Part shown: positions 1 to 7,547 of the stretch, piece by piece
How the letters are laid out: the number at the start of each line of letters is the position of its first letter
Numbering within the stretch: the stretch's first letter is position 1
Source: a virus
Taxonomy: Duplodnaviria; Heunggongvirae; Uroviricota; Caudoviricetes
Virus record (IMG/VR): IMGVR_UViG_2585427710_000007
Coordinates: 1-7,547 of that record
DNA length: 7,547 bases
Reading direction: 5' to 3' (one strand)
The notes under the pieces: model-generated
Database searches by the model: none
What the model saw: only the letters and a program-made list of their open reading frames with translations
What the model was told of the DNA's origin: nothing
Position numbers and translations under genes: made by a program

Positions 1-164
1 ACAAATACTGCTCGGCGATCTATCAGCCAACGCCCACGAATTTTTTGTGGTCTTGGAACGATGTATCCTAGTTTTCCGTATTTCACCAGGGTAGTGTTTG
101 TTATTGGGAGACTGAACCGTTTTGGTTTCCACTCATCGAGCGTTATCAGGTACTGTTCGCTCAT
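1..164 (-). CDS. Hypothetical protein, N-terminal 54 codons only (gene runs off the left edge)
   Basis: Minus-strand ATG at 164..162 with GGAG 9 nt upstream (rev-comp of 171-174). Open frame to position 1, reading MSEQYLITLDEWKPKRFSLPITNTTLVKYGKLGYIVPRPQKIRGRWLIDRRAVF. Absent from the ORF track, apparently for length. Does not look like RecT. Confidence 0.4.
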   Translation of the reverse strand, partial: MSEQYLITLDEWKPKRFSLPITNTTLVKYGKLGYIVPRPQKIRGRWLIDRRAVF

Positions 165-225
165 GGCTATCACTCCGGAACGCGCCAGTTGCAGAATACC
201 AACGACAACTGGCGACGGTTGAACA

Positions 226-2628
226 TTAAAAATCAGCCTGACTCGGGATCAGTTTTTGCCAGATAGCTGAAACGTATTTTGCCTGGTAACGCGCATCGTG
301 CAGGGCATTATGGCGCTCACCCTCAAATGTGATGACACTTCGAGCATCGAAATCCATCACCAGTCCCATAGCAACCATCGTTCTTACATCGCGATCATTG
401 GTGTAACGCCATGGGCAGGGGATCCCCTGCCGTTCATATGAACGGCGTAAAATTACGTTGTCAAAGTTGGCTCCATTTCCCCAGACCTGAACAAAAAATT
501 CACCGGAGTTTTCGTCGATAAATTCCCGTAATTGCAACAGTGCGTCATCCAACGGGATTTCATCGGTCAGAATGGCTGATTGTGCTTCCCGTGACTGTTT
601 CAGCCACCACTTAATGGTGTCCCGATCGATGACTCCGCCCGCGGTTTCCAGATCGATAGTTTTGCTGAATTCTGGCCCCATCTCTCCGGTTGCCGGATCA
701 AAAAACTTACCGGCCAGAGCGTTTATTGGCGCATCAGGATTTTTGCCCATTGTTTCAAGGTCAATCATCAGATGGTGCCACAACCTGCTGGTGGATGTGC
801 TTTCGTGATGACCGTTCACCTTAATTAAGGGATTTGCTGTCTCGCCTGTTTCATTATTGCCATTGGCATGTTGATCGCCTTCGGTGCACTCCTTGTTCGG
901 GTATACGGCACTCTCCATTTCCTCTGGATCTTTCTCCCGGGCTTCATCCTGGCTTTCTTCGTTGAATGTTTCCTGGTATGTTGCGTCGCCCATTACCGCG
1001 CCACAGTCAGGACAGTTGCCGTCGCCGGTCTGACCGCAGGCGGTGCAGACTTTTTCCGGTTCTTGTTGCTCTTCTGGTTCAGGCTGTTTCGTTTCCGGCT
1101 CGTTTTGTTCCGATTCGTGCTGGTTCTGGTTCACAGAATCGCGGGTTTCAATCCCCTTCACCCATTTCGGATCATTCGGGTCGCTAATCCCTTCAACAAA
1201 TTCTCCGTGAGAAGCAGCCAGTAATTTATCTGCATCGACAGGATTTTTGGGGGGAATGTTTTTCCTGGCTTCATGGAGTTCTGCACGCAGTTTCTGATAT
1301 TTCGCATCAACAGAATTTATCTGTGGCTGAGCATCCATCGACTGCGTGTCCTGATTATGTTCAGTTGTATCCGGTTCCACTGCTTCAGTCGTTGCCTGTT
1401 CATCTGCCATTGCGCCAGTTGGCTGCGGTTTTTCTTCATCATCCTGTTTTCCTTCTTTTGTTACACGCTGCGGCATTGGAGCAGAGGAGCGACCGCAGGC
1501 AATATCCACGATTTCTGGATCAGGGTTGGCATGGTCGGTTTCGGTCAGTACTTTGTTCAGATATTCGGTAACACGGTGGGGAGTAGCCTCGATACCAATT
1601 GGTGCTTCTTTCACGGACGCAACCACTATCGCGCGGGAATAATCCAGGTGACCAGGCATGGCGATGAATTTGTCACGAAAAACAGAAAAGGGCGGCTTAT
1701 TCTCTGAAACGATTTCTTCAATGCGTTTGGCGTGTGCCGGATGTGGATTGTAAATATCGATGTCCATTGAACGGGCCAGAACGCCAGCGGCAACGTCACG
1801 TTCCACTGACGCATCATCGTGGACAAAACCTTCACCGCGATCGGTAAGAATTCCTCCGCCAGCATTAGCGCCGGATGGCGTGCGGCTGATGCGTAAAACA
1901 CGATTTCCTTTCATCCACTCTTTTGTCAGCAGACCTCGATCGGTATAGTCAGCGTCCAGGTATGCTTCGAAAAAAGCAGTCATTAACCCCAGATTGGAAT
2001 TAACGGGATTAGGGAAAACTTTGTCTGTGTCGCGTACCAGTTTGTGAAGGTCGCGAATCTCCAGCGGGTCGAGCAGCTTTGTGTTGTGGGAAATAGCCAG
2101 GGCAGTAACAGCAGGCAGTTCTTCAGCTCGTGCGATATGTAATGCCTGAAGTTCTTCCCGTGAAACGTGCGTTACCGGTTTTTCGCTGCCATGTTGCGCA
2201 AGCCAGCGAATGGGCAGTTCCTGACCGGAAATCGGCAGGAGCATATTATCCTCAATCTCAGCCATGTCTTCGCCATTGACGTTGGTATTGTCAGTGCTGG
2301 CAGGTTTGTCCTGAACTGAGGGGGAAGGCGCTATAAATATCATTGTGATGCCATCTTCTCCGCCTTTTTCATAGCGGTTGCAGAATTCGGTATCAAACAC
2401 ACCTTCAGGCGGCAGGTCATTAACAATAGGCAAATTCACGCGAACAGGTTTTTTGAAATCCTCTTCGTCAAATCCAGCATCGTCCATTGCGACAACACCC
2501 CGTGATATTGCAACCGATAATTTTTTTGCTGTGCGCCAGTAAAAACCGCCTTTAATCCCAAGGCGTTTTCTGACTTTGTCATTTTTGGCTTCGTAATACA
2601 GTGCAATTTCTTCTTTATCAGTGCTCAT
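226..2628 (-). CDS. RecE-like (exodeoxyribonuclease VIII-like) protein, 800 aa, with a C-terminal DnaQ-like DEDDh 3'-5' exonuclease domain
   Basis: Track ORF with GAGG 7 nt upstream of the ATG at 2628. N-terminal and central regions resemble my recollection of Rac RecE (for example [27 protein letters not shown]). There is an acidic low-complexity linker and a C-x2-C-x7-C-x2-C zinc-ribbon-like motif ([16 protein letters not shown]). The C-terminus carries Exo I (MIDLETMG), Exo II ([10 protein letters not shown]) and Exo III ([13 protein letters not shown]) motifs. Confidence 0.85.
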
Positions 2629-2720
2629 TGATAAACCTCATAACTATTTTAAGGTTGTACGAATCCCTGCCATTGCTGGCATACTTAATCAACGGGTATG
2701 GCGTTAATATGGCTGGCGGG

Positions 2721-2909
2721 TTATCCAGCCGGTATTTCGTTATTCAGGTACAGCGATACTTTTTTTAACGGGAGACATTCGCCAGAAATTTTTTGCTCGT
2801 CTCTTGCACGGAGGCATGATTCTTTACTGGCATAAATTCCGGTAATCACTTTCTGTGGCTCACCTGTTATCAGAAAAACCGTCATCATCAGTGTAAACGC
2901 TGAACTCAC
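2721..2909 (-). CDS. ydfD: YdfD-like small protein with a hydrophobic N-terminus (lysis-type peptide)
   Basis: GTG start at 2909 with GGAGG 6 nt upstream; GTGA start/stop overlap with dicB. The N-terminus SSAFTLMMTVFLITG is hydrophobic. Sits immediately downstream of dicB, as ydfD does in Qin. Family assignment is from memory and synteny. Confidence 0.6.
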   Translation of the reverse strand: MSSAFTLMMTVFLITGEPQKVITGIYASKESCLRARDEQKISGECLPLKKVSLYLNNEIPAG

Positions 2910-3094
2910 TGCTGCCCTCCGAAAATGCCAAGTTCAAGAAGGGCAATTCTGGAGAGTATGGAATTATCATTGAGAAGATAAGGCTCATATTTTCTCATCC
3001 TGATGGCGTCCTCAGTAAACTCCCGGTTACTGAGCAGAATACCAATATTAAAACACCCTTCAGACGTATTAACGTTTGGTAGTGACGTTTCCAT
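2906..3094 (-). CDS. dicB: Cell division inhibitor DicB homolog (62 aa)
   Basis: ATG at 3094 with GAGGA about 7 nt upstream. The product METSLPNVNTSEGCFNIGILLSNREFTEDAIRMRKYEP... matches my recollection of the DicB N-terminal half (LPNVNTSEGCF, FTEDAI). It lies about 175 nt downstream of a DicF-like element, as in Qin. Confidence 0.8.
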   Translation of the reverse strand: METSLPNVNTSEGCFNIGILLSNREFTEDAIRMRKYEPYLLNDNSILSRIALLELGIFGGQQ

Positions 3095-3271
3095 TATCGC
3101 GTCCTCAACAATGAATTTTGTGATGTGGTGCCTGGTGCCTCCAGGTGACGTTAACCAGTTAACAATTAACGCCGGATTGTTAGTTGATGTCTGTTACGCC
3201 AGTAAAAGACCGCTTGTTTTAACTGTTCCGCGTGCGCTTAGCCGCATTCACCGCATCACAAAATACACTTT

Positions 3272-3311
3272 AAAAATGGCGGATATCCATTTCCGCCGAA
3301 TCACCAGAAAA
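3272..3311 (-). ncRNA. dicF: DicF-like small RNA candidate (shortened variant) ending in an intrinsic terminator
   Basis: Minus-strand sequence UUUUCUGGUGAUUCG-GGCGGA-aauggaua-UCCGCC-AUUUUU. The 5' motif UUUCUGGUGA matches the start of K-12 DicF as I recall it. A 6-bp GC stem (3292-3297 / 3278-3283) with an 8-nt loop is followed by a U-run (3272-3277). Position upstream of dicB matches Qin. The 5' end is not defined. Confidence 0.5.
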
Positions 3312-3652
3312 GTGATAACAGAGGTTGTTGTGGCGGTGTTGTCACTCAGGCGTATGGTCAACCTGACAACCCGGTGCATTTTCTGGAGTAATGGAGGAAG
3401 CCCCAGCCATACTTACCGCCGCGCCATTTCGCGGATTGCCACAACCGGAAGCGCACGATCGAATTAAATTTAACGACGACCTGTACAGAGAGACTAACTT
3501 CGCCGTGCGCTTTCGTGTTATGCCCTGACTTTTCAGGGATATGTTCTTTCAGTAAACTGTCAGTGCCGGATTCTTATCCGTGTCCGGCGCACGACCACAC
3601 GTGACAGCGTGTTGGTCTCCATTTTTAACCCAGAACCTCTATGGAGGATAAA

Positions 3653-3955
3653 ATGCACTCTAAATCAAATCGATATTATGTTCATGTGCAGTTATTTGAA
3701 GCAACAATGGAACAGGAGAAAAAGTTCGAGACTCTGATGCCAAATTTTAAATACTCCAGGATGATTAATGAAGGTGACGTTGAATATAAATTGTTGCCAG
3801 GGGCATACGTTATTCAGTCAACGCTCAATTCGAATCAAATACTTGAACAAACCTTTTCTGTTGCTAATTCAGTTGGTGTTAATGCTCACATTTTTGTTTG
3901 CCCTTATGATGAAAGTGCAACCCTTTTGCCTTGTGCTGATTTTGGCACTTACTAA
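3653..3955 (+). CDS. Hypothetical 100-aa protein; AT-rich moron in reverse orientation within the leftward operon
   Basis: GGAGG at 3643-3647, 5 nt before the ATG at 3653 (the track start at 3641 is less likely). The ORF is visibly AT-rich compared with the flanking sequence. No transmembrane segment or recognisable motif. Product MHSKSNRYYVHVQLFEATMEQEKKFETLMPNFKYSRMINEGDVEYKLLPGAYVIQ... Confidence 0.6.
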   Translation: MHSKSNRYYVHVQLFEATMEQEKKFETLMPNFKYSRMINEGDVEYKLLPGAYVIQSTLNSNQILEQTFSVANSVGVNAHIFVCPYDESATLLPCADFGTY

Positions 3956-4259
3956 CTAAATTTAATTTATGTTCAAGTTCGGCTATTTGCATACGTAGTG
4001 CTTTAACCATTGTTTCATGATAAATCTCACTCACTCCACCTGGGTGTGGGGTGAATTTAGGTGAATAATCTTTGTTTTCAGAACTCAGCTTCTCTTCGTA
4101 CAGCTTGATAAAGGCATTACGCACATTATGGGATATATTGTCGATGGTTTCTTTTTCTACGGTACTCAGGTCAAGAGTCGCCAGTTGAGAACGAACTATA
4201 TTCGCTGCCATTTCCTGGAATGGTACTGGTAAATCTTTAAATTCCATCGTCAACCTCAT
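3879..4259 (-). CDS. Hypothetical 126-aa protein at the ydfB/ydfC position of a dicB-type operon
   Basis: The ATG at 4259..4257 overlaps the ydfA-like stop (ATGA), suggesting translational coupling. An alternative ATG at 4247 has GAGG 6-8 nt upstream. The last 25 codons or so are read antisense to the 3' end of the plus-strand gene 3653-3955, giving a His/Lys-rich tail. Confidence 0.6.
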   Translation of the reverse strand: MRLTMEFKDLPVPFQEMAANIVRSQLATLDLSTVEKETIDNISHNVRNAFIKLYEEKLSSENKDYSPKFTPHPGGVSEIYHETMVKALRMQIAELEHKLNLVSKCQNQHKAKGLHFHHKGKQKCEH

Positions 4260-4411
4260 CAGTCAGTGTTTCTGGCTAACCAGCGACGCGCGCCAGCTTC
4301 AGTTTTAAACGTTTTGCTTCTGGTATACGTCATCGCGGTAAACGTGCCGTCCAGGTTGGAGAATACTCCGCATACCAGAGATTCGTTGTTGCCAAGATTG
4401 AGCGTATCCAT
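4259..4411 (-). CDS. ydfA: YdfA/YdaF-like small protein (DUF1391-type), 50 aa
   Basis: ATG at 4411 with GAGG about 6 nt upstream. Product MDTLNLGNNESLVCGVFSNLDGTFTAMTYTRSKTFKTEAGARRWLARNTD matches my recollection of Qin YdfA. First gene of the leftward operon. Below the ORF-track length cutoff. Confidence 0.65.
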   Translation of the reverse strand: MDTLNLGNNESLVCGVFSNLDGTFTAMTYTRSKTFKTEAGARRWLARNTD

Positions 4412-4640
4412 GTTGACCTCATTTACCCTTAACGCCGGGTCGCGGAACTAAAAACCTGCTGCGCTGTTATACAAAGTGTTCCCGCCGTCATGTTCATACG
4501 CCTCGGGCTGGCTACTTAACCCCTGACCACTGCCGGGTAACTCGAAGTATTGCCCTGCGTTCTGTTGAATGGGGTGGGTTGGTGAAACAAGGATGCACTT
4601 TTAAAGTTATTATGTCAACACTTATAAAGTTAGGTTGTGG

Positions 4641-4669
4641 GCAACAAAAACCGCCTCGAGATGAGACGG
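4641..4669 (-). terminator. Rho-independent terminator of the paaR2-paaA2-parE2-like operon
   Basis: On the minus-strand RNA, a 7-bp GC-rich stem (4663-4669 paired with 4651-4657, one G-U pair) with a 5-nt loop, followed by UUUUUGUUG (4641-4650), starting 12 nt after the parE stop. Confidence 0.6.
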
Positions 4670-4682
4670 CCCTGTGAAAGGG

Positions 4683-4970
4683 TTAGTTCTGCTTGGGGAA
4701 TTGGCGTCTGGCGTGTACTACACTCACGATCTCAATGCTTAAAGTGGCTACACGGTAAAGAATTATATAGTTAGGGTGAGCTACAATCTCACGCAAGCCA
4801 GGTACTCTGTCGCTTGGTGGGTATAAATACGGGTGTTCGGATAACGGCAGCACACACCCCCTTAATCGCTGCCATAAGCGTTCTGCCGCATCTATGTCGA
4901 AACGAGCAATATAACTAGTTATATCATCTAGGTCGGTATCTGCGCTTTCAAGCCATAACACGGGTAACAT
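4683..4970 (-). CDS. parE2: ParE-family toxin (ParE2-like) of a three-component TA system
   Basis: 95-aa ORF, MLPVLWLESADTDLDDITSYIARFDIDAAERLWQRL...HARRQFP, typical of the RelE/ParE fold and matching my recollection of E. coli O157 ParE2. Starts 3 nt after the paaA2 stop. Paralog 1 versus 2 cannot be settled by eye. Confidence 0.85.
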   Translation of the reverse strand: MLPVLWLESADTDLDDITSYIARFDIDAAERLWQRLRGCVLPLSEHPYLYPPSDRVPGLREIVAHPNYIILYRVATLSIEIVSVVHARRQFPKQN

Positions 4971-4973
4971 TTA

Positions 4974-5162
4974 CTACTTACTCCGTTCCTTGCGCATTTT
5001 AGCAAAGCGTTCTGCCATTCTGCGCTCAACCTCGTCATGGGGAATTGCTGGGCGCGGATTTGCAAGGCTCGCTGCTACTTTCGCACGCAGCCATTCGTTG
5101 TAACTGTTTTCTTGTTCAATGGTTTCGAACTCAGAAACCATTGGTGAAAGGGCCGTATTCAT
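4974..5162 (-). CDS. paaA2: PaaA2-like antitoxin (62 aa)
   Basis: Internal ATG at 5162 with GGAGG 6 nt upstream. Product MNTALSPMVSEFETIEQENSYNEWLRAKVAASLANPRPAIPHDEVERRMAERFAKMRKERSK, close to what I recall of PaaA2. The 83-aa track ORF from 5225 is rejected as an overextension into paaR. Confidence 0.85.
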   Translation of the reverse strand: MNTALSPMVSEFETIEQENSYNEWLRAKVAASLANPRPAIPHDEVERRMAERFAKMRKERSK

Positions 5163-5191
5163 GGCACACCTCCGTCTGTGTATGGTGGTCA

Positions 5192-5599
5192 TTATGCTCG
5201 ATGCCCTTTCCGGGCAGCGAGCCATCTTTCAATTGTGCGCTCCATTAACTCTTTTTTGTCTTTCATCTCCTGAAGCATTTGTCCCTGTTCTTCCTCTGGG
5301 AATGCACCAAATGTCTGAAGTAGCTCTCTTTGCTTCGGACCTATTTTCATTGTGTCAGGTACCACAATCTGTTCGTCCTCACTTGGTGGCAACATAAACC
5401 AATATGGAGGGAATCCTGTTACTTCAGAAAGTTTATCAAGATTAGCCATTGATGGGCTTGTGATGCCATGAACCCACTTTTGGACCGATTGTTGGGCAAC
5501 ACCTATTCTGCGGGCTAGTTCTGCTTGCTTAAGCCCTGTTTTTTCCAGCACCAGTTTTATCCGGTACGTGGTTATTTCAAGAGTGGTCATTCGCTTCAT
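5192..5599 (-). CDS. paaR2: PaaR2-like HTH (XRE/CI-like) transcriptional regulator, in the cI position
   Basis: 135-aa ORF with a helix-turn-helix region (LKQAELARRIGVAQQSVQKWVHG). Divergent from the Cro-like gene and first gene of the TA operon. The ATG at 5599 has no clear SD, so it may be leaderless; Met4 is an alternative start. Confidence 0.8.
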   Translation of the reverse strand: MKRMTTLEITTYRIKLVLEKTGLKQAELARRIGVAQQSVQKWVHGITSPSMANLDKLSEVTGFPPYWFMLPPSEDEQIVVPDTMKIGPKQRELLQTFGAFPEEEQGQMLQEMKDKKELMERTIERWLAARKGHRA

Positions 5600-5706
5600 G
5601 CATTCATTTTACACAAAAAAAGTGTAGCCAGCACAATCAGCTTGAAAGTGTTGATAGTGTAACTTTTAGAGTGTATAAGTGGTGTCGATTGATTGGAGTT
5701 AGCGAT
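5600..5706. promoter_or_regulatory. Divergent promoter/operator region of the immunity switch
   Basis: Rightward sigma70 candidate: -35 TTGATA (5651-5656), 17-bp spacer, -10 TATAAG (5674-5679). Leftward candidate -10 TAAAAT (rev-comp of 5606-5611), which would start transcription at or next to the paaR ATG. Palindrome TACAC-N7-GTGTA at 5610-5626 and repeated AGTGT motifs at 5647, 5656 and 5670. Confidence 0.5.
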
Positions 5707-5985
5707 ATGCATAAATGTTTAAAAAATAAAATTCGCCAAATAGGGTTATCCCAAGCGGGTGTTGCTCGCTTGATTGGGTTGCCACAGCAGGTTGTATGTC
5801 GATGGGTTAATGGGCAACAGGTCCCTGCATCAAGGGTTTTACAACTATGTGAGATTATGGCGTGGACTGTCACCCCCCACGAGCTCCGACCAGATATTTA
5901 CCCTAACCCAACCGATGGCCTGCCTTGTGGACGTAAGAGTACAGCGAATGAATTACTGGCGGTGAACAATGAAAATCACACCTGA
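5707..5985 (+). CDS. ydaS: Cro-like HTH protein of the YdaS family
   Basis: ATG at 5707 with GGAG 8 nt upstream (5695-5698); the track GTG start at 5671 is less likely. HTH region IGLSQAGVARLIGLPQQVVCRWVNG. Divergent from the repressor and overlaps the ydaT-like start by 17 nt. Confidence 0.7.
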   Translation: MHKCLKNKIRQIGLSQAGVARLIGLPQQVVCRWVNGQQVPASRVLQLCEIMAWTVTPHELRPDIYPNPTDGLPCGRKSTANELLAVNNENHT

Positions 5986-6490
5986 ACAGGTTTGCGAGGC
6001 TCTGGATGCCTGGGTATGCAGACCAGGAATGACGCAGGAGCAGGCGACGATATTAATTACTGAAGCCTTCTGGGCTCTACAGGAACGCCCGAACATCGAT
6101 GTTCAGCGTGTCACGCTTGATGATGGCGGGGTTGATCAGCGTGCGCTTGGCGTTAACCGGGTGAAGATATTCGAACGCTGGAAGGCTATCGACACCAGGG
6201 ATAAGCGTGAAAAATTCACGGCGCTGATTCCGGCAATTATGGAGGCTATCCGGATTAGTGATTTCAGGTTGTACCGCGAAATTACTGACGGAAAAAGCAT
6301 TACGTACATGATTGCCGGGTTAAACAAAGAATATGGAGATGTGGTGGAGTCCGGGCTGCTTTTTGCAGATCCAGCTGTTGTGGAACGTGAGACAGACGAG
6401 CTTATAGAAAAAGCAATCGCTTTCAAGCGTGCCTATCGTCACCAGTACCAACAAAAAGCCGGATGGAATTATGAGCCTTCTTTTTGCTGA
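5969..6490 (+). CDS. ydaT: YdaT-family protein (functional CII analogue in Rac-type prophages), 173 aa
   Basis: Position immediately after the Cro-like gene with overlapping start. The motif REKFTALIPAIMEA resembles my recollection of Rac YdaT. Confidence 0.65.
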   Translation: MKITPEQVCEALDAWVCRPGMTQEQATILITEAFWALQERPNIDVQRVTLDDGGVDQRALGVNRVKIFERWKAIDTRDKREKFTALIPAIMEAIRISDFRLYREITDGKSITYMIAGLNKEYGDVVESGLLFADPAVVERETDELIEKAIAFKRAYRHQYQQKAGWNYEPSFC

Positions 6491-7436
6491 ACGCCCGCTG
6501 GTTATAAACACACAGCTGGCGATGAAGATTGGTTTAAACGAAGCCATTGTGTTGCAGCAACTGCATTACTGGTTGAGGGATACCAGTTCCGGCATGGAAT
6601 GTGATGGCGTTCGCTGGATTTACAACACAACGGAACAATGGCTGGAACAGTTTCCGTTCTGGTCAGAGTCAACGTTAAAGCGTGCGTTTGCAAGTCTGAA
6701 AGCGCTGGGGCTTTTGCGTAGCGAAAAGCTCAATAAATCGAAGCGTGATATGACTAATTTTTACACAATTAACTACGATAGCGCGCTTTTAGATGATGGC
6801 AAAGTGAACGAATCCATCGGGTCAAAATGCGCCACTCCATCAGGTCAAAATGACACGATGGAAGAGGTCAAAATGAAACGTTCCATTGGTTCAAAACGGC
6901 CCAATGTCATCAGGTCAAAATGGCCCGATGATCCTACAGAGAATACAACAGAGAATACAACAGAGAATAAAAAACTCTCTTGTCCGGACGCTTCGCAACC
7001 GGACGAGTTGACGGCTGAACAGGCGTTTTTAACCCGCCATCCTGATGCAGTTGTGTTCAGCGTGAAAAAACGCCAGTGGGGAACCCGGGAGGATTTGACA
7101 TGTGCGCAGTGGATCTGGGGGCGGGTTGTAAACCTGTACGAACAGGCTGCCAGTGACGATGGTGAGATCACGCGACCGAAAGAGCCCAACTGGACGGCGT
7201 GGGCCAATGACGTGCGCACAATGCGGATGCTGGATGGAAGAAGTCACAGACAAATTTGCGAAATGTTCAGCCGGGCACAACGGGATCCGTTCTGGATAAA
7301 AAACATCAAGAGCCCGGAAAAACTCCGTGAGAAATGGGATGAACTGGTTATTCGACTGTGGCGTGGTCCCGCGCAGCGTTGCGTGAATCATATTTCTGAA
7401 CCGGATACCGAAATTCCGCCGGGTTTCAGGGGGTAG
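6471..7436 (+). CDS. Phage replication initiator / replisome organizer (lambda O-like) with an internal origin
   Basis: ATG at 6471 preferred over the track start at 6429, which would overlap ydaT by 62 nt. The N-terminal region (LVINTQLAMKIGLNEAIVLQQLHYWL...) is typical of replisome organizer N-domains. Iterons lie inside the gene. Followed 6 nt later by the next gene. Confidence 0.7.
   Translation: MSLLFAERPLVINTQLAMKIGLNEAIVLQQLHYWLRDTSSGMECDGVRWIYNTTEQWLEQFPFWSESTLKRAFASLKALGLLRSEKLNKSKRDMTNFYTINYDSALLDDGKVNESIGSKCATPSGQNDTMEEVKMKRSIGSKRPNVIRSKWPDDPTENTTENTTENKKLSCPDASQPDELTAEQAFLTRHPDAVVFSVKKRQWGTREDLTCAQWIWGRVVNLYEQAASDDGEITRPKEPNWTAWANDVRTMRMLDGRSHRQICEMFSRAQRDPFWIKNIKSPEKLREKWDELVIRLWRGPAQRCVNHISEPDTEIPPGFRG
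6814..6925. repeat. Candidate replication origin: five iterons with about 23-bp periodicity
   Basis: Core GGTCAAAATG at 6820, 6843, 6866 and 6913, plus a degenerate copy GGTTCAAAACG at 6888. Spacing is 23, 23, 22-23 and 24-25 bp, often preceded by CATCA. This is the arrangement of ori-lambda inside the O gene. Confidence 0.7.
6936..6971. repeat. Three tandem 12-bp repeats (ACAGAGAATACA) immediately after the iterons
   Basis: ACAGAGAATACA at 6936-6947 and 6948-6959, then ACAGAGAATAAA at 6960-6971. They encode TENTTENTTENK within the initiator and form an A-rich stretch next to the iterons. Confidence 0.7.
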
Positions 7437-7442
7437 CGCATC

Positions 7443-7547
7443 ATGAAAAACATTACGTCAGGTGGTGTTCTGGCAAGAGTCAGCAGATTTGTGCCGCAGG
7501 ATGCAATCCCTCCGTACCGTACGGTGACGGAGTGGCGGGAATGGCAG
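7443..7547 (+). CDS. Start of a downstream replication-module gene (possibly P/DnaC-like helicase loader), partial
   Basis: ATG at 7443, 6 nt after the initiator stop, with a G-rich SD-like stretch upstream. Open to the window end, reading MKNITSGGVLARVSRFVPQDAIPPYRTVTEWREWQ. The function is inferred from position only. Confidence 0.4.
   Translation, partial: MKNITSGGVLARVSRFVPQDAIPPYRTVTEWREWQ

Follow-up and report, generated by a model that had tools for sequence, protein, structure and literature searches.

The question raised by this locus is which nuclease is encoded by a prophage gene that starts as a relative of recE and ends in a different catalytic domain. The window, i.e., the whole 7,547-nucleotide stretch of viral DNA that was analyzed (positions 1 to 7,547 of the IMG/VR record IMGVR_UViG_2585427710_000007), carries at 226..2628 an exonuclease gene that is complete in the list of open reading frames, with an uninterrupted frame over 800 aa and the stop codon at 226-228. 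This gene and all other features named below lie on the minus strand. Its DNA is 100% identical to that of the annotated “exonuclease” coding sequence WP_022581375.1 on the STEC chromosome NZ_CP101310.1. An earlier note, made from the DNA letters, had described the product as a RecE-like protein with a DEDDh 3′-5′ exonuclease C terminus; that observation is confirmed, and the interpretation attached to it is partly supported. The 800-aa protein is modular and consists of a RecE-type N-terminal scaffold, a junction module, and a C-terminal DexA/Rv2179c-like DEDDh exonuclease head. The analysis established this architecture along with the fold and the intact, conserved active site of the head, the mosaic junction, the synteny and prevalence of the gene, and the purifying selection acting on it. 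The architecture is already known: public databases contain both this very protein and its Pfam architecture, for example under the name “3′-5′ exonuclease,” and the novelty is low because the combination has been catalogued. Of 10 long representatives, 8 pair the Exonuc_VIII and Rv2179c-like domains, even where identity in the head is as low as ~53%.

The folded domains of the scaffold occupy aa ~1-100, 130-240, and 270-380 of the protein. The first of them is an N-terminal alpha/beta domain (aa 1-100; 2329..2628) of a sequence type that is found in other DEDDh fusions, such as the 813-aa protein of strain 537-20, but not in K-12 RecE. The Exonuc_VIII domain (PF06630) is recognized at aa 56-189 (2062..2463) with a Pfam E value of 6.2e-34 and a score of 118 bits (cutoff, 25). 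In BLASTP, the region homologous to RecE of the K-12 Rac prophage, aa 58-602 (823..2457), aligns with RecE residues 50-591 at 76% identity, and there is no alignment past aa 602. The NCBIfam RecE model PRK09709 (NF007259) stops at the same point: its match is limited to aa 1-602, which correspond to model positions 1-602 of 877, and the score of 1081.7 bits falls below the curated RecE equivalog cutoff of 1269 bits. The RecE-like character that had been claimed for the N-terminal and central parts is thus borne out. Across diverged fusions, the best-conserved and most confidently folded part of the scaffold is the central helical domain at aa ~270-380 (1489..1821), which has a pLDDT of ~81-94, is 82-98% identical to RecE, and includes the block ...LDYSRA...YIN..LTE. 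A second homolog search, with aa 1-470 as the query, returned near-identical E. coli proteins only and is used here for prevalence and naming rather than as a deep alignment.

The C-terminal part, aa 618-790 (259..777), matches the Rv2179c-like family (PF16473) over all of the profile (positions 1-177 of 177) with an E value of 1.7e-60 and a score of 204 bits (cutoff, 27). Its AlphaFold model (pLDDT 94, pTM 0.90) has an RNase H-like DEDD fold, for which the best Foldseek matches are the T4 DexA structures 8ken and 8kel (E value 1.6e-11, TM 0.75), with RNase T, Orn, and REXO2 ranking after DexA, at a probability of 1.00. Sequence searches point in the same direction, with DexA matched at an E value of 1.1e-22 in a profile search against PDB and at 5e-5 by phmmer. 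The catalytic motifs lie where the earlier note had placed them. Exo motif I, MIDLETMG (aa 621-628; 745..768), supplies D623 and E625, which align with D7 and E9 of DexA; the motif at aa 718-727 (448..477) supplies D723, aligned with DexA D119; and the H773-x4-D778 motif of the “h” type (aa 773-785; 274..312) aligns with H186 and D191. All five catalytic residues are therefore present and match those of DexA one for one in the alignment. Among 131 homolog representatives with a mutual identity of at most 50%, their conservation is 97-100% (D623 in 131, E625 in 127, D723 in 128, H773 in 130, and D778 in 129), so that the conservation of the DEDD residues, on which the original proposal had been staked, holds. 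A few diverged fusions are substituted at catalytic positions, with E625K seen in 3 of the 131. A C-terminal PD-(D/E)XK nuclease domain, the canonical ending of RecE, was considered and is ruled out by the Pfam assignment to PF16473, by the lack of any BLASTP alignment beyond RecE residue 591, and by the DexA-like fold.

By analogy with T4 DexA, its nearest relative of solved structure, this head is expected to have 3′-5′ polarity, in agreement with the activity that had been predicted from the motifs. The choice of substrate has to be weighed against the possibility that the head acts like Rv2179c on RNA 3′ ends, for example by degrading or maturing transcripts or small RNAs of the host or the phage upon induction. 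The Pfam family takes its name from an exoribonuclease, PGAP uses the name “3′-5′ exoribonuclease domain-containing protein,” and many DEDDh enzymes of similar fold are RNases, including RNase T, Orn, and REXO2. However, the sequence and structure searches agree in placing the DNase DexA closest to the head among solved proteins, and Rv2179c itself is neither among the PDB profile matches with an E value of ≤0.01 nor in the top 50 Foldseek matches; its absence from the former list places it at a greater distance from the head than DexA. Moreover, homologs are located in DNA recombination modules, as in phage mEp235 (PMC12315714), and the scaffold is of the type seen in RecE, a DNA exonuclease. 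We therefore regard an exoribonuclease as quite improbable and expect that DNA, rather than RNA, would be the substrate.

The two parts of the protein meet in a junction module at aa ~465-600 (829..1236), delimited by sliding identity, which includes a conserved SDPNDPKW stretch, a zinc ribbon, and an acidic linker. The zinc-ribbon-like CxxC-x7-CxxC motif is at aa 528-543 (C528, C531, C539, and C542; 1006..1047), and the linker, a low-complexity segment recognized by its composition, is at aa 541-600 (829..1008), with 12-13 D/E versus 3 K/R per 40 residues. The earlier note had listed both as features preceding the nuclease domain; they are indeed present but are not special to this variant, as K-12 RecE has both. 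The CxxC-x7-CxxC motif is absent from the diverged fusions P0125-P0144. The dN/dS ratio of the linker, 0.27, is above that of the folded parts, and it is in the junction/linker region, immediately before the zinc ribbon, that the length variants of 800 and 814 aa differ. RecE and every E. coli DEDDh-type exonuclease in the comparison share the module as a whole, with a protein sliding identity of 50-92% to all four comparators. At the DNA level, nucleotides 1411-1700 of the gene are 73-93% identical to all four; past nucleotide ~1800, identity to recE drops to ~45-50%, whereas that to the O157-type gene climbs to 88-100%. Judged from these profiles, the gene is a lambdoid mosaic, and the junction module is the likely site of nuclease-head exchange. 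The head would have been swapped through recombination inside the junction-coding DNA that recE genes have in common with the genes for DEDDh-type exonucleases. Relative to Rac, a cassette consisting of the PD-(D/E)XK head and recT (plus ralR and rcbA) would have given way to a single DEDDh head, which would explain why the gene abuts xis-int.

Directly downstream of the gene is the 5′ part of an open reading frame (1..164; ATG at 164) that starts with MSEQYLITLDEW and runs past the window edge. The earlier note had seen no resemblance to RecT in it, correctly so: in the identical STEC locus, this frame carries the annotation excisionase (WP_000003742.1), and integrase and potC come next, in that order. 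Upstream and in the same orientation are a DUF1482/YdfD-like gene (2721..2909; Pfam DUF1482, E value 4.7e-14) and a DicB gene (2906..3094; Pfam DicB, 7.4e-34). The order dicB-ydfD-exonuclease-xis-int is conserved across the compared loci, and the early-left operon in the window contains only a ParE/PaaA2 pair, a DUF1391 gene, a gene for a 126-aa protein, and the DicB, DUF1482, exonuclease, and xis genes. In all 13 sampled loci with an intact fusion gene, which come from E. coli chromosomes, phages, and diverged fusion homologs on genome and metagenome contigs, this gene is directly upstream of xis/int, and in none of them is there a gene for an annealing protein beside it. One further locus has an IS3-truncated remnant of the fusion in the same xis/int-proximal position. 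The gene is best explained as part of an early-left operon in a lambdoid prophage of the Rac/Qin type and encodes an intact exonuclease; in the identical STEC locus, the prophage is integrated next to potC. A promoter/terminator scan around the gene gave no signal above shuffled expectation, and Rfam had no match within the window at the gathering threshold. A single Chi site lies inside the gene, which is not significant (50 of 200 shuffles had at least one).

The gene is not rare. Of 5426 complete E. coli genomes, 4044 carry DNA of the DEDDh head, in up to 7 copies each, and 1730 carry that of the canonical RecE head; among the matches listed, recT is annotated beside the canonical head in every case. 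The fusion gene is common in E. coli, and its DEDDh head, with ~8000 E. coli loci in all, is more widespread than the RecE head. The 800-aa open reading frame was recovered at ≥80% of its length in 661 complete genomes. The dN/dS ratio is 0.11-0.13 (~0.12) in the head and in the scaffold, i.e., both halves are under purifying selection, and the fusion architecture is kept across diverged Enterobacteriaceae. These observations bear on the view that the gene is a functionless recombinant remnant of prophage decay, for which one could cite the broken copies in cryptic prophages (ydfE of K-12 Qin, truncated by IS2, and the IS3-truncated copy), as well as the E625K substitutions mentioned above. 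Given the intact frame and its recovery from so many genomes, the five preserved catalytic residues, the low dN/dS in both halves, and the maintenance of the architecture, we find this view scarcely credible.

What, then, does the enzyme do? The reading that we favor, with slightly better than even confidence, is that of an early-left-operon exonuclease that acts on DNA 3′ ends and works without a phage annealase. The gene would be transcribed together with dicB-ydfD from a repressor-controlled early-left promoter after induction; gene order and what is known of Rac and Qin suggest that it would be expressed only then. The enzyme would remove 3′-end nucleotides of DNA by two-metal catalysis involving D623, E625, D723, H773, and D778, and would process the ends of phage or host DNA in the lytic phase; it might, for instance, trim 3′ tails or flaps or expose 5′ overhangs. 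The RecE-type scaffold may give it the same targeting or oligomerization that RecE gets. The position of a standalone 182-aa homolog in mEp235, amid SSB, Abc2, and a Rad52-type annealase, is counted as a link to DNA transactions, and a biological role as a DNA-end exonuclease would be in keeping with it. Since the phage encodes no annealing protein, recombination, if it results at all, would have to draw on host functions. It is not obvious that a 3′-5′ exonuclease without an annealase would promote recombination; nucleases of this kind usually inhibit homologous recombination (PMC12315714).

An alternative is a prophage-borne nuclease for defense or superinfection exclusion, whose DEDDh head would destroy the nucleic acid of incoming phages while the RecE-type scaffold would serve as an auxiliary or targeting domain. 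Its targets could be 5hmC-modified DNA, as claimed for EcD (“HREX”), or RNA-phage genomes attacked at their 3′ ends, as claimed for the ISG20-like “TONDO” exonucleases. EcD, a plasmid-borne DexA homolog from E. coli, is reported to digest T4 DNA and to protect against T4 (PMC12153337), and prophage-encoded DEDDh exonucleases equipped with auxiliary domains are reported to block MS2 and Qbeta (PMC13344964). The gene analyzed here is likewise prophage borne and extremely widespread, its head is DexA-like, and the high copy number of the head would also fit a defense role. Against this, the 800-aa protein and the products of five neighboring open reading frames matched 0 families in PADLOC-DB 2.0. 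In an alignment at ~27% identity, whose register is somewhat uncertain, W152 and D169 of DexA, reported to be needed for the recognition of 5hmC, correspond to T743 and V757, whereas the tetramerization residue D90 is retained as D695. The TONDO candidates, in turn, were selected under 500 aa and come from ISG20-like clades (PMC13344964). Finally, the gene occupies the RecE slot of a repressor-controlled early-left operon, after dicB-ydfD, and shows no promoter signal above chance, so that it is probably silent in lysogens. The recET genes are silent in Rac lysogens. On balance, a defense function appears unlikely.

The earlier note had also raised an anti-defense role, in which the exonuclease would aid the induced phage by breaking down a nucleic acid of host immunity, for example retron msDNA, a guide RNA, or a linear oligonucleotide signal. 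In its favor is the general precedent that early phage genes located beside recombination functions often counteract host nucleases. However, literature searches found no homolog with a demonstrated anti-defense role, and the published functional claims for relatives concern recombination modules or defense (including PMC12153337 and PMC13344964). The PADLOC search, whose library consists of defense rather than anti-defense models, gave 0 matches. That the gene keeps its position and that its head trades places with that of RecE both speak instead for a RecE-like role in DNA-end processing. The suggestion thus gains no support, and we regard it as very unlikely.

For the favored DNA-end exonuclease, a more ambitious extension would treat the ~600-aa RecE-type N-terminal region as a general “nuclease delivery platform” that lambdoid phages would equip with interchangeable heads of opposite polarity, either a PD-(D/E)XK 5′-3′ nuclease together with RecT or a DEDDh 3′-5′ nuclease alone, the latter, which is the commoner of the two in E. 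coli, performing a distinct, annealase-independent task. If so, this task might be 3′-end-driven end joining or annealing via host factors, or the exclusion of competing phages, and the purpose of the long-mysterious RecE N terminus would be revealed. We put this forward as a rather doubtful proposal.

The value of these findings lies in record keeping more than in discovery. A “RecE-like” gene beside xis/int in an E. coli prophage more often encodes a DEDDh 3′-5′ exonuclease than a true RecE. The label “exodeoxyribonuclease VIII,” used by some depositors, implies 5′-3′ resection and a RecT partner, neither of which is present, and these genes are false positives in the mining of RecET pairs for recombineering. 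In addition, the presence of two unrelated heads of opposite polarity on one conserved scaffold, both under purifying selection, amounts to a natural experiment on the RecE N-terminal region. The gene also bears on the role of abundant prophage DEDDh exonucleases in recombination, DNA scavenging, or phage exclusion, on which the claims of recent papers conflict.

Among the known systems, Rv2179c of Mycobacterium tuberculosis, the namesake of PF16473, belongs to the same Pfam family as the head but is a reported exoribonuclease, according to the Pfam description, and, unlike the 800-aa protein, is neither prophage borne nor fused. T4 DexA (PDB 8KEL and 8KEN) is the closest solved structure, with the five catalytic residues aligned at ~21-27% sequence identity. 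It is a 3′-5′ exodeoxyribonuclease with roles in the scavenging of host DNA and in double-strand break repair during intron homing (PMC12153337). DexA is a standalone protein of 227 aa, with extra loops and helices but without the RecE-type scaffold. EcD, or “HREX,” is another DexA-like DEDDh exonuclease from E. coli; going by its published description and by the prevalence data, it is probably a member of the same widespread prophage family as the head; its accession, HAK9828821.1, does not occur in the member lists of 10 candidate clusters. EcD is described as a short standalone protein that lacks an equivalent of D90 and keeps the 5hmC-recognition Trp and Asp (PMC12153337), the reverse of the pattern in the 800-aa protein.

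In lambdoid phages, DnaQ-like 3′-5′ nucleases are members of Rec modules but also occur as sporadic genes near int in early-left operons, where they are not counted as Rec-module genes (PMC12315714); by the criterion used there for Rec-module nucleases, the 800-aa gene falls into the “sporadic, near int” class. The product of gene 30 of mEp235, which is similar to the “exodeoxyribonuclease VIII” of epsilon34, is a member of the same Rv2179c-like DEDDh family, is 53% identical to the head, and, like the 800-aa protein, is encoded in a lambdoid early-left operon. However, it has no scaffold, and its gene lies between those for SSB and Abc2, beside the annealase gene, whereas the 800-aa gene is next to xis/int and has no Rec-module neighbors.

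The Qin-type prophage exonucleases of 813-823 aa are much closer: they occupy the same slot, dicB-ydfD-exo-xis-int, and have the same junction module and DEDDh head, with 75-100% identity over aa 600-800. The 823-aa type carries a YdfE-type N terminus, 100% identical to K-12 YdfE over 256 aa and with no similarity to the N terminus of the 800-aa protein, and K-12 ydfE is an IS2-truncated pseudogene of such an exonuclease. Orthology of the 800-aa gene to K-12 ydfE was considered and rejected: despite the common slot, YdfE (306 aa) is unlike the N terminus of the 800-aa protein and matches the 823-aa type instead. A literature search did not find a functional study of ydfE. From its sequence, the 800-aa protein is a hybrid with RecE-type sequence at aa ~110-460.

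RecE itself (exonuclease VIII of K-12 Rac) likewise has the Exonuc_VIII region, the central helical domain, the CxxC-x7-CxxC motif, and the acidic linker, and its gene takes the same early-left-operon slot in a Rac/Qin-type prophage. It differs in the sequence type of the first ~110 residues and in its C-terminal PD-(D/E)XK 5′-3′ nuclease domain (RecE residues ~564/606-866), which the 800-aa protein does not have. In Rac, recE is followed by its adjacent, overlapping partner recT and by ralR and rcbA; the 800-aa gene is accompanied by none of the three. The two enzymes, built on related scaffolds, are thus expected to attack DNA with opposite polarity.

The exonuclease gene (positions 226 to 2628, minus strand) is an uninterrupted open frame of 800 codons, and its DNA is 100% identical to the RefSeq coding sequence of WP_022581375.1, annotated as "exonuclease" on the STEC chromosome NZ_CP101310.1. 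A Pfam search of the 800-aa protein detects Exonuc_VIII (PF06630) at residues 56 to 189 (E = 6e-34) and the Rv2179c-like 3'-5' exonuclease domain (PF16473) at residues 618 to 790 (E = 1.7e-60), with the latter profile covered entirely. In BLASTP, residues 58 to 602 align with residues 50 to 591 of K-12 RecE at 76% identity, with no alignment past residue 602, and the NCBIfam RecE equivalog is matched only at model positions 1 to 602 of 877, with a score below its cutoff. These results confirm the earlier note, which had described RecE-like N-terminal and central parts joined to a DEDDh C-terminus, and the motifs that it named are found where it had placed them. MIDLETMG, in the DEDDh head, occupies residues 621 to 628, the second and third DEDDh motifs are at residues 718 to 727 and 773 to 785, and a CxxC-x7-CxxC Zn ribbon (residues 528 to 543) adjoins an acidic linker (residues 541 to 600).

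Both sequence and predicted fold mark the C-terminal head as a genuine member of the DEDDh exonucleases. Among 131 homologous domains, taken from a library clustered at 50% identity that holds 10,916 relatives at E ≤1e-3, the predicted catalytic residues D623, E625, D723, H773, and D778 are conserved in 100%, 97%, 98%, 99%, and 98%, respectively, and they align with D7, E9, D119, H186, and D191 of DexA. The AlphaFold model of residues 611 to 800 (pLDDT 94, pTM 0.90) has T4 DexA (8KEN/8KEL) as its top solved-structure match (E = 1.6e-11, TM 0.75), followed by RNase T, oligoribonuclease, and REXO2. The head-family profile matches DexA with E = 1.1e-22, and Rv2179c is not among its matches at E ≤0.01. 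The fold is thus DexA-like DEDDh and not PD-(D/E)XK, the catalytic residues are 97 to 100% conserved, and the domain interpretation of the earlier note was correct. A 3'-5' polarity is a well-founded expectation; that the substrate would be RNA is very unlikely.

A few RecE-scaffold/DEDDh fusions (P0127 and P0134, from locus L016 and others) have DLKTMG in place of DLETMG in motif I, and P0134 additionally has Gly in place of D778; judging from these substitutions, such diverged fusions may keep catalytically dead heads on the scaffold. Many "standalone" E. coli DEDDh entries (the P0080 and P0072 clusters, 177 to 183 aa) start exactly at the internal Met of MIDLETMG (M621 in the window protein), and many of them are flagged partial. 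These entries may represent pieces of disrupted long genes, or start codons miscalled within such genes, instead of true short forms.

Sliding identity comparisons portray the gene as a mosaic. Residues 1 to 110 resemble other DEDDh fusions (78 to 92%) and not K-12 RecE (18 to 38%), residues 110 to 250 resemble both, residues 250 to 460 resemble RecE only (78 to 98%), residues 465 to 600 resemble RecE and all DEDDh-type exonucleases compared, and residues 600 to 800 resemble DEDDh-type genes only (75 to 100%). At the DNA level, nucleotides 1411 to 1700 of the gene are 73 to 93% identical to every comparator; identity to an O157-type gene climbs to 88 to 100% from about nucleotide 1770, and identity to recE falls to about 45 to 50% past nucleotide ~1800. 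The head thus appears to have been swapped at a junction common to RecE and DEDDh-type genes, which corresponds to the point where, according to a review (PMC11611040), the RecE nuclease domain (residues 564 to 866) begins. Since K-12 RecE carries both the Zn ribbon and the acidic linker, these are features inherited from RecE and not additions; in the alignment, the ribbon is missing from more diverged fusions. Close relatives are either 800 or 814 aa long, the difference being an acidic, Q/E/P-rich insertion just N-terminal to the Zn ribbon (window positions ~1050 to 1140, residues ~497 to 526), so the linker is length polymorphic.

In the model of residues 1 to 470, an alpha/beta domain (residues 1 to 100) is followed by helical regions (residues ~130 to 240 and ~270 to 380), with disordered segments at residues 102 to 124 and 389 to 437; this model has no convincing match among solved structures. 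The RecE N terminus is still termed a domain of unknown function in the review literature, the sole known effect of full-length RecE being better linear-linear recombination (PMC11611040). The most interesting remaining reading, if quite an unlikely one, sees the RecE scaffold as a base on which nuclease heads can be swapped, with the DEDDh version performing a task of its own that needs no annealase.

Far from being a rarity, this prophage gene is ordinary and abundant, and it lends itself to correct annotation. Of 5426 complete E. coli genomes, 4044 contain the DEDDh-head-coding DNA at ≥80% length (8059 places in total, up to 7 per genome) and 1730 contain the canonical RecE head, with recT annotated beside the latter in every case among the matches listed; the full-length exonuclease gene is found at ≥80% coverage in 661 genomes. 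The dN/dS ratio is 0.11 to 0.13 for the head and for the folded scaffold alike, and 0.27 for the linker. Selection and prevalence both contradict the view of the gene as a decay product, which is extremely improbable. The architecture is already in public databases: identical proteins are variously named "exonuclease," "3'-5' exoribonuclease," "exodeoxyribonuclease VIII," and "RecE family exodeoxyribonuclease," all with the precomputed PF06630 + PF16473 combination, which is also seen in 8 of 10 long cluster representatives with head identity down to about 53%. The gene class has been noted as well: DnaQ-like 3'-5' nucleases were reported in lambdoid Rec modules (Zheng et al., Genome Res 2025, PMC12315714), where sporadic ones "very near int" were excluded from the Rec-module genes.

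On the minus strand of the window, the early-left order is the cI-like HTH repressor (5192 to 5599), a PaaA2-type antitoxin (4974 to 5225) and ParE-family toxin (4683 to 4970), DUF1391, a 126-aa protein, DicB, a DUF1482/YdfD-like protein, the exonuclease, and the first part of an excisionase. The plus strand carries YdaS-like, YdaT-like, and O-like replication genes rightward of the repressor. The antitoxin-toxin pair directly follows the repressor, and the antitoxin frame as listed overlaps the repressor frame. We take this layout (4683 to 5599) to resemble the three-gene paaR2-paaA2-parE2 system of O157 prophages; if the likeness holds, the prophage repressor may also control the antitoxin and toxin genes. 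An Rfam search gives a full-length but sub-threshold match to the STnc100 sRNA (RF02076; 3062 to 3279, minus strand; E = 3.5e-5; 33 bits, the gathering score being 47); the match lies immediately upstream of dicB and overlaps the 5' end of that gene. The window gives no match to DicF, whereas in K-12 Qin dicF is located upstream of dicB. In the identical locus, RefSeq annotates no gene in the ~780 bp that separate dicB from the 126-aa gene (3095 to 3878), a stretch whose G+C content drops to 0.38 to 0.40. A plus-strand frame (3641 to 3955, 104 aa) matching phrog_8894 (E = 6.6e-34) is antisense to the 126-aa gene and overlaps its 3' end. The single Chi sequence, GCTGGTGG, at 787 to 794 (plus strand) within the exonuclease gene is no more than expected by chance.

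We favor, with modest confidence, a DNA 3'-end exonuclease that is expressed upon induction and acts without a phage annealase; during lytic growth, it would serve DNA-end metabolism. This reading draws on four observations. DexA, the nearest characterized relative of the head, is a DNase described in PMC12153337 as acting in host-DNA scavenging and in intron homing linked to double-strand break repair. Phage mEp235 encodes a standalone head homologue between SSB and Abc2, adjoining a Rad52-type annealase. On the shared scaffold, the DEDDh head stands where RecE, a DNA exonuclease, has its own head. Finally, dicB-ydfD and the exonuclease gene share one orientation and are separated by short gaps; a promoter/terminator scan of this region gave no signal above chance. 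A defense nuclease, as suggested by the HREX claim for EcD, an E. coli DexA homologue (PMC12153337), and by the TONDO preprint (PMC13344964), is unlikely, as the residues through which DexA reportedly recognizes 5hmC are replaced (T743 and V757 here), PADLOC returned no match, and the place of the gene in the operon suggests that it is silent in lysogens. An anti-defense factor is highly improbable.

The claim of the earlier note that no RecT-like partner lies downstream also holds, the window continuing into an excisionase. We sampled 13 loci with an intact fusion gene: E. coli chromosomes (integration at potC, tRNA-Ser/mtfA, and rspB), one induced phage, and six diverged homologues from genome and metagenome contigs. 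In 13 of 13, the fusion gene is immediately upstream of xis/int, and none has a RecT, Beta, Erf, or Rad52-type gene. An IS3-truncated remnant, counted apart, occupies the same position. In four diverged loci (L007, L016, L017, and L018), a gene for a ~110-aa Rrf2-family protein replaces DicB/DUF1482 immediately upstream of the exonuclease.

The host element is a Rac/Qin-type lambdoid prophage without an annealase. The 823-aa Qin-type exonuclease differs in its N terminus, which is unrelated to that of the window protein and matches the K-12 pseudogene ydfE at 100% identity over 256 aa; in K-12, ydfE is cut short by IS2. In K-12 Rac, recE is followed by recT, ralR, rcbA, xisR, and intR, whereas here the exonuclease gene is followed by the excisionase and, in the identical locus of NZ_CP101310.1, by the integrase and then potC.
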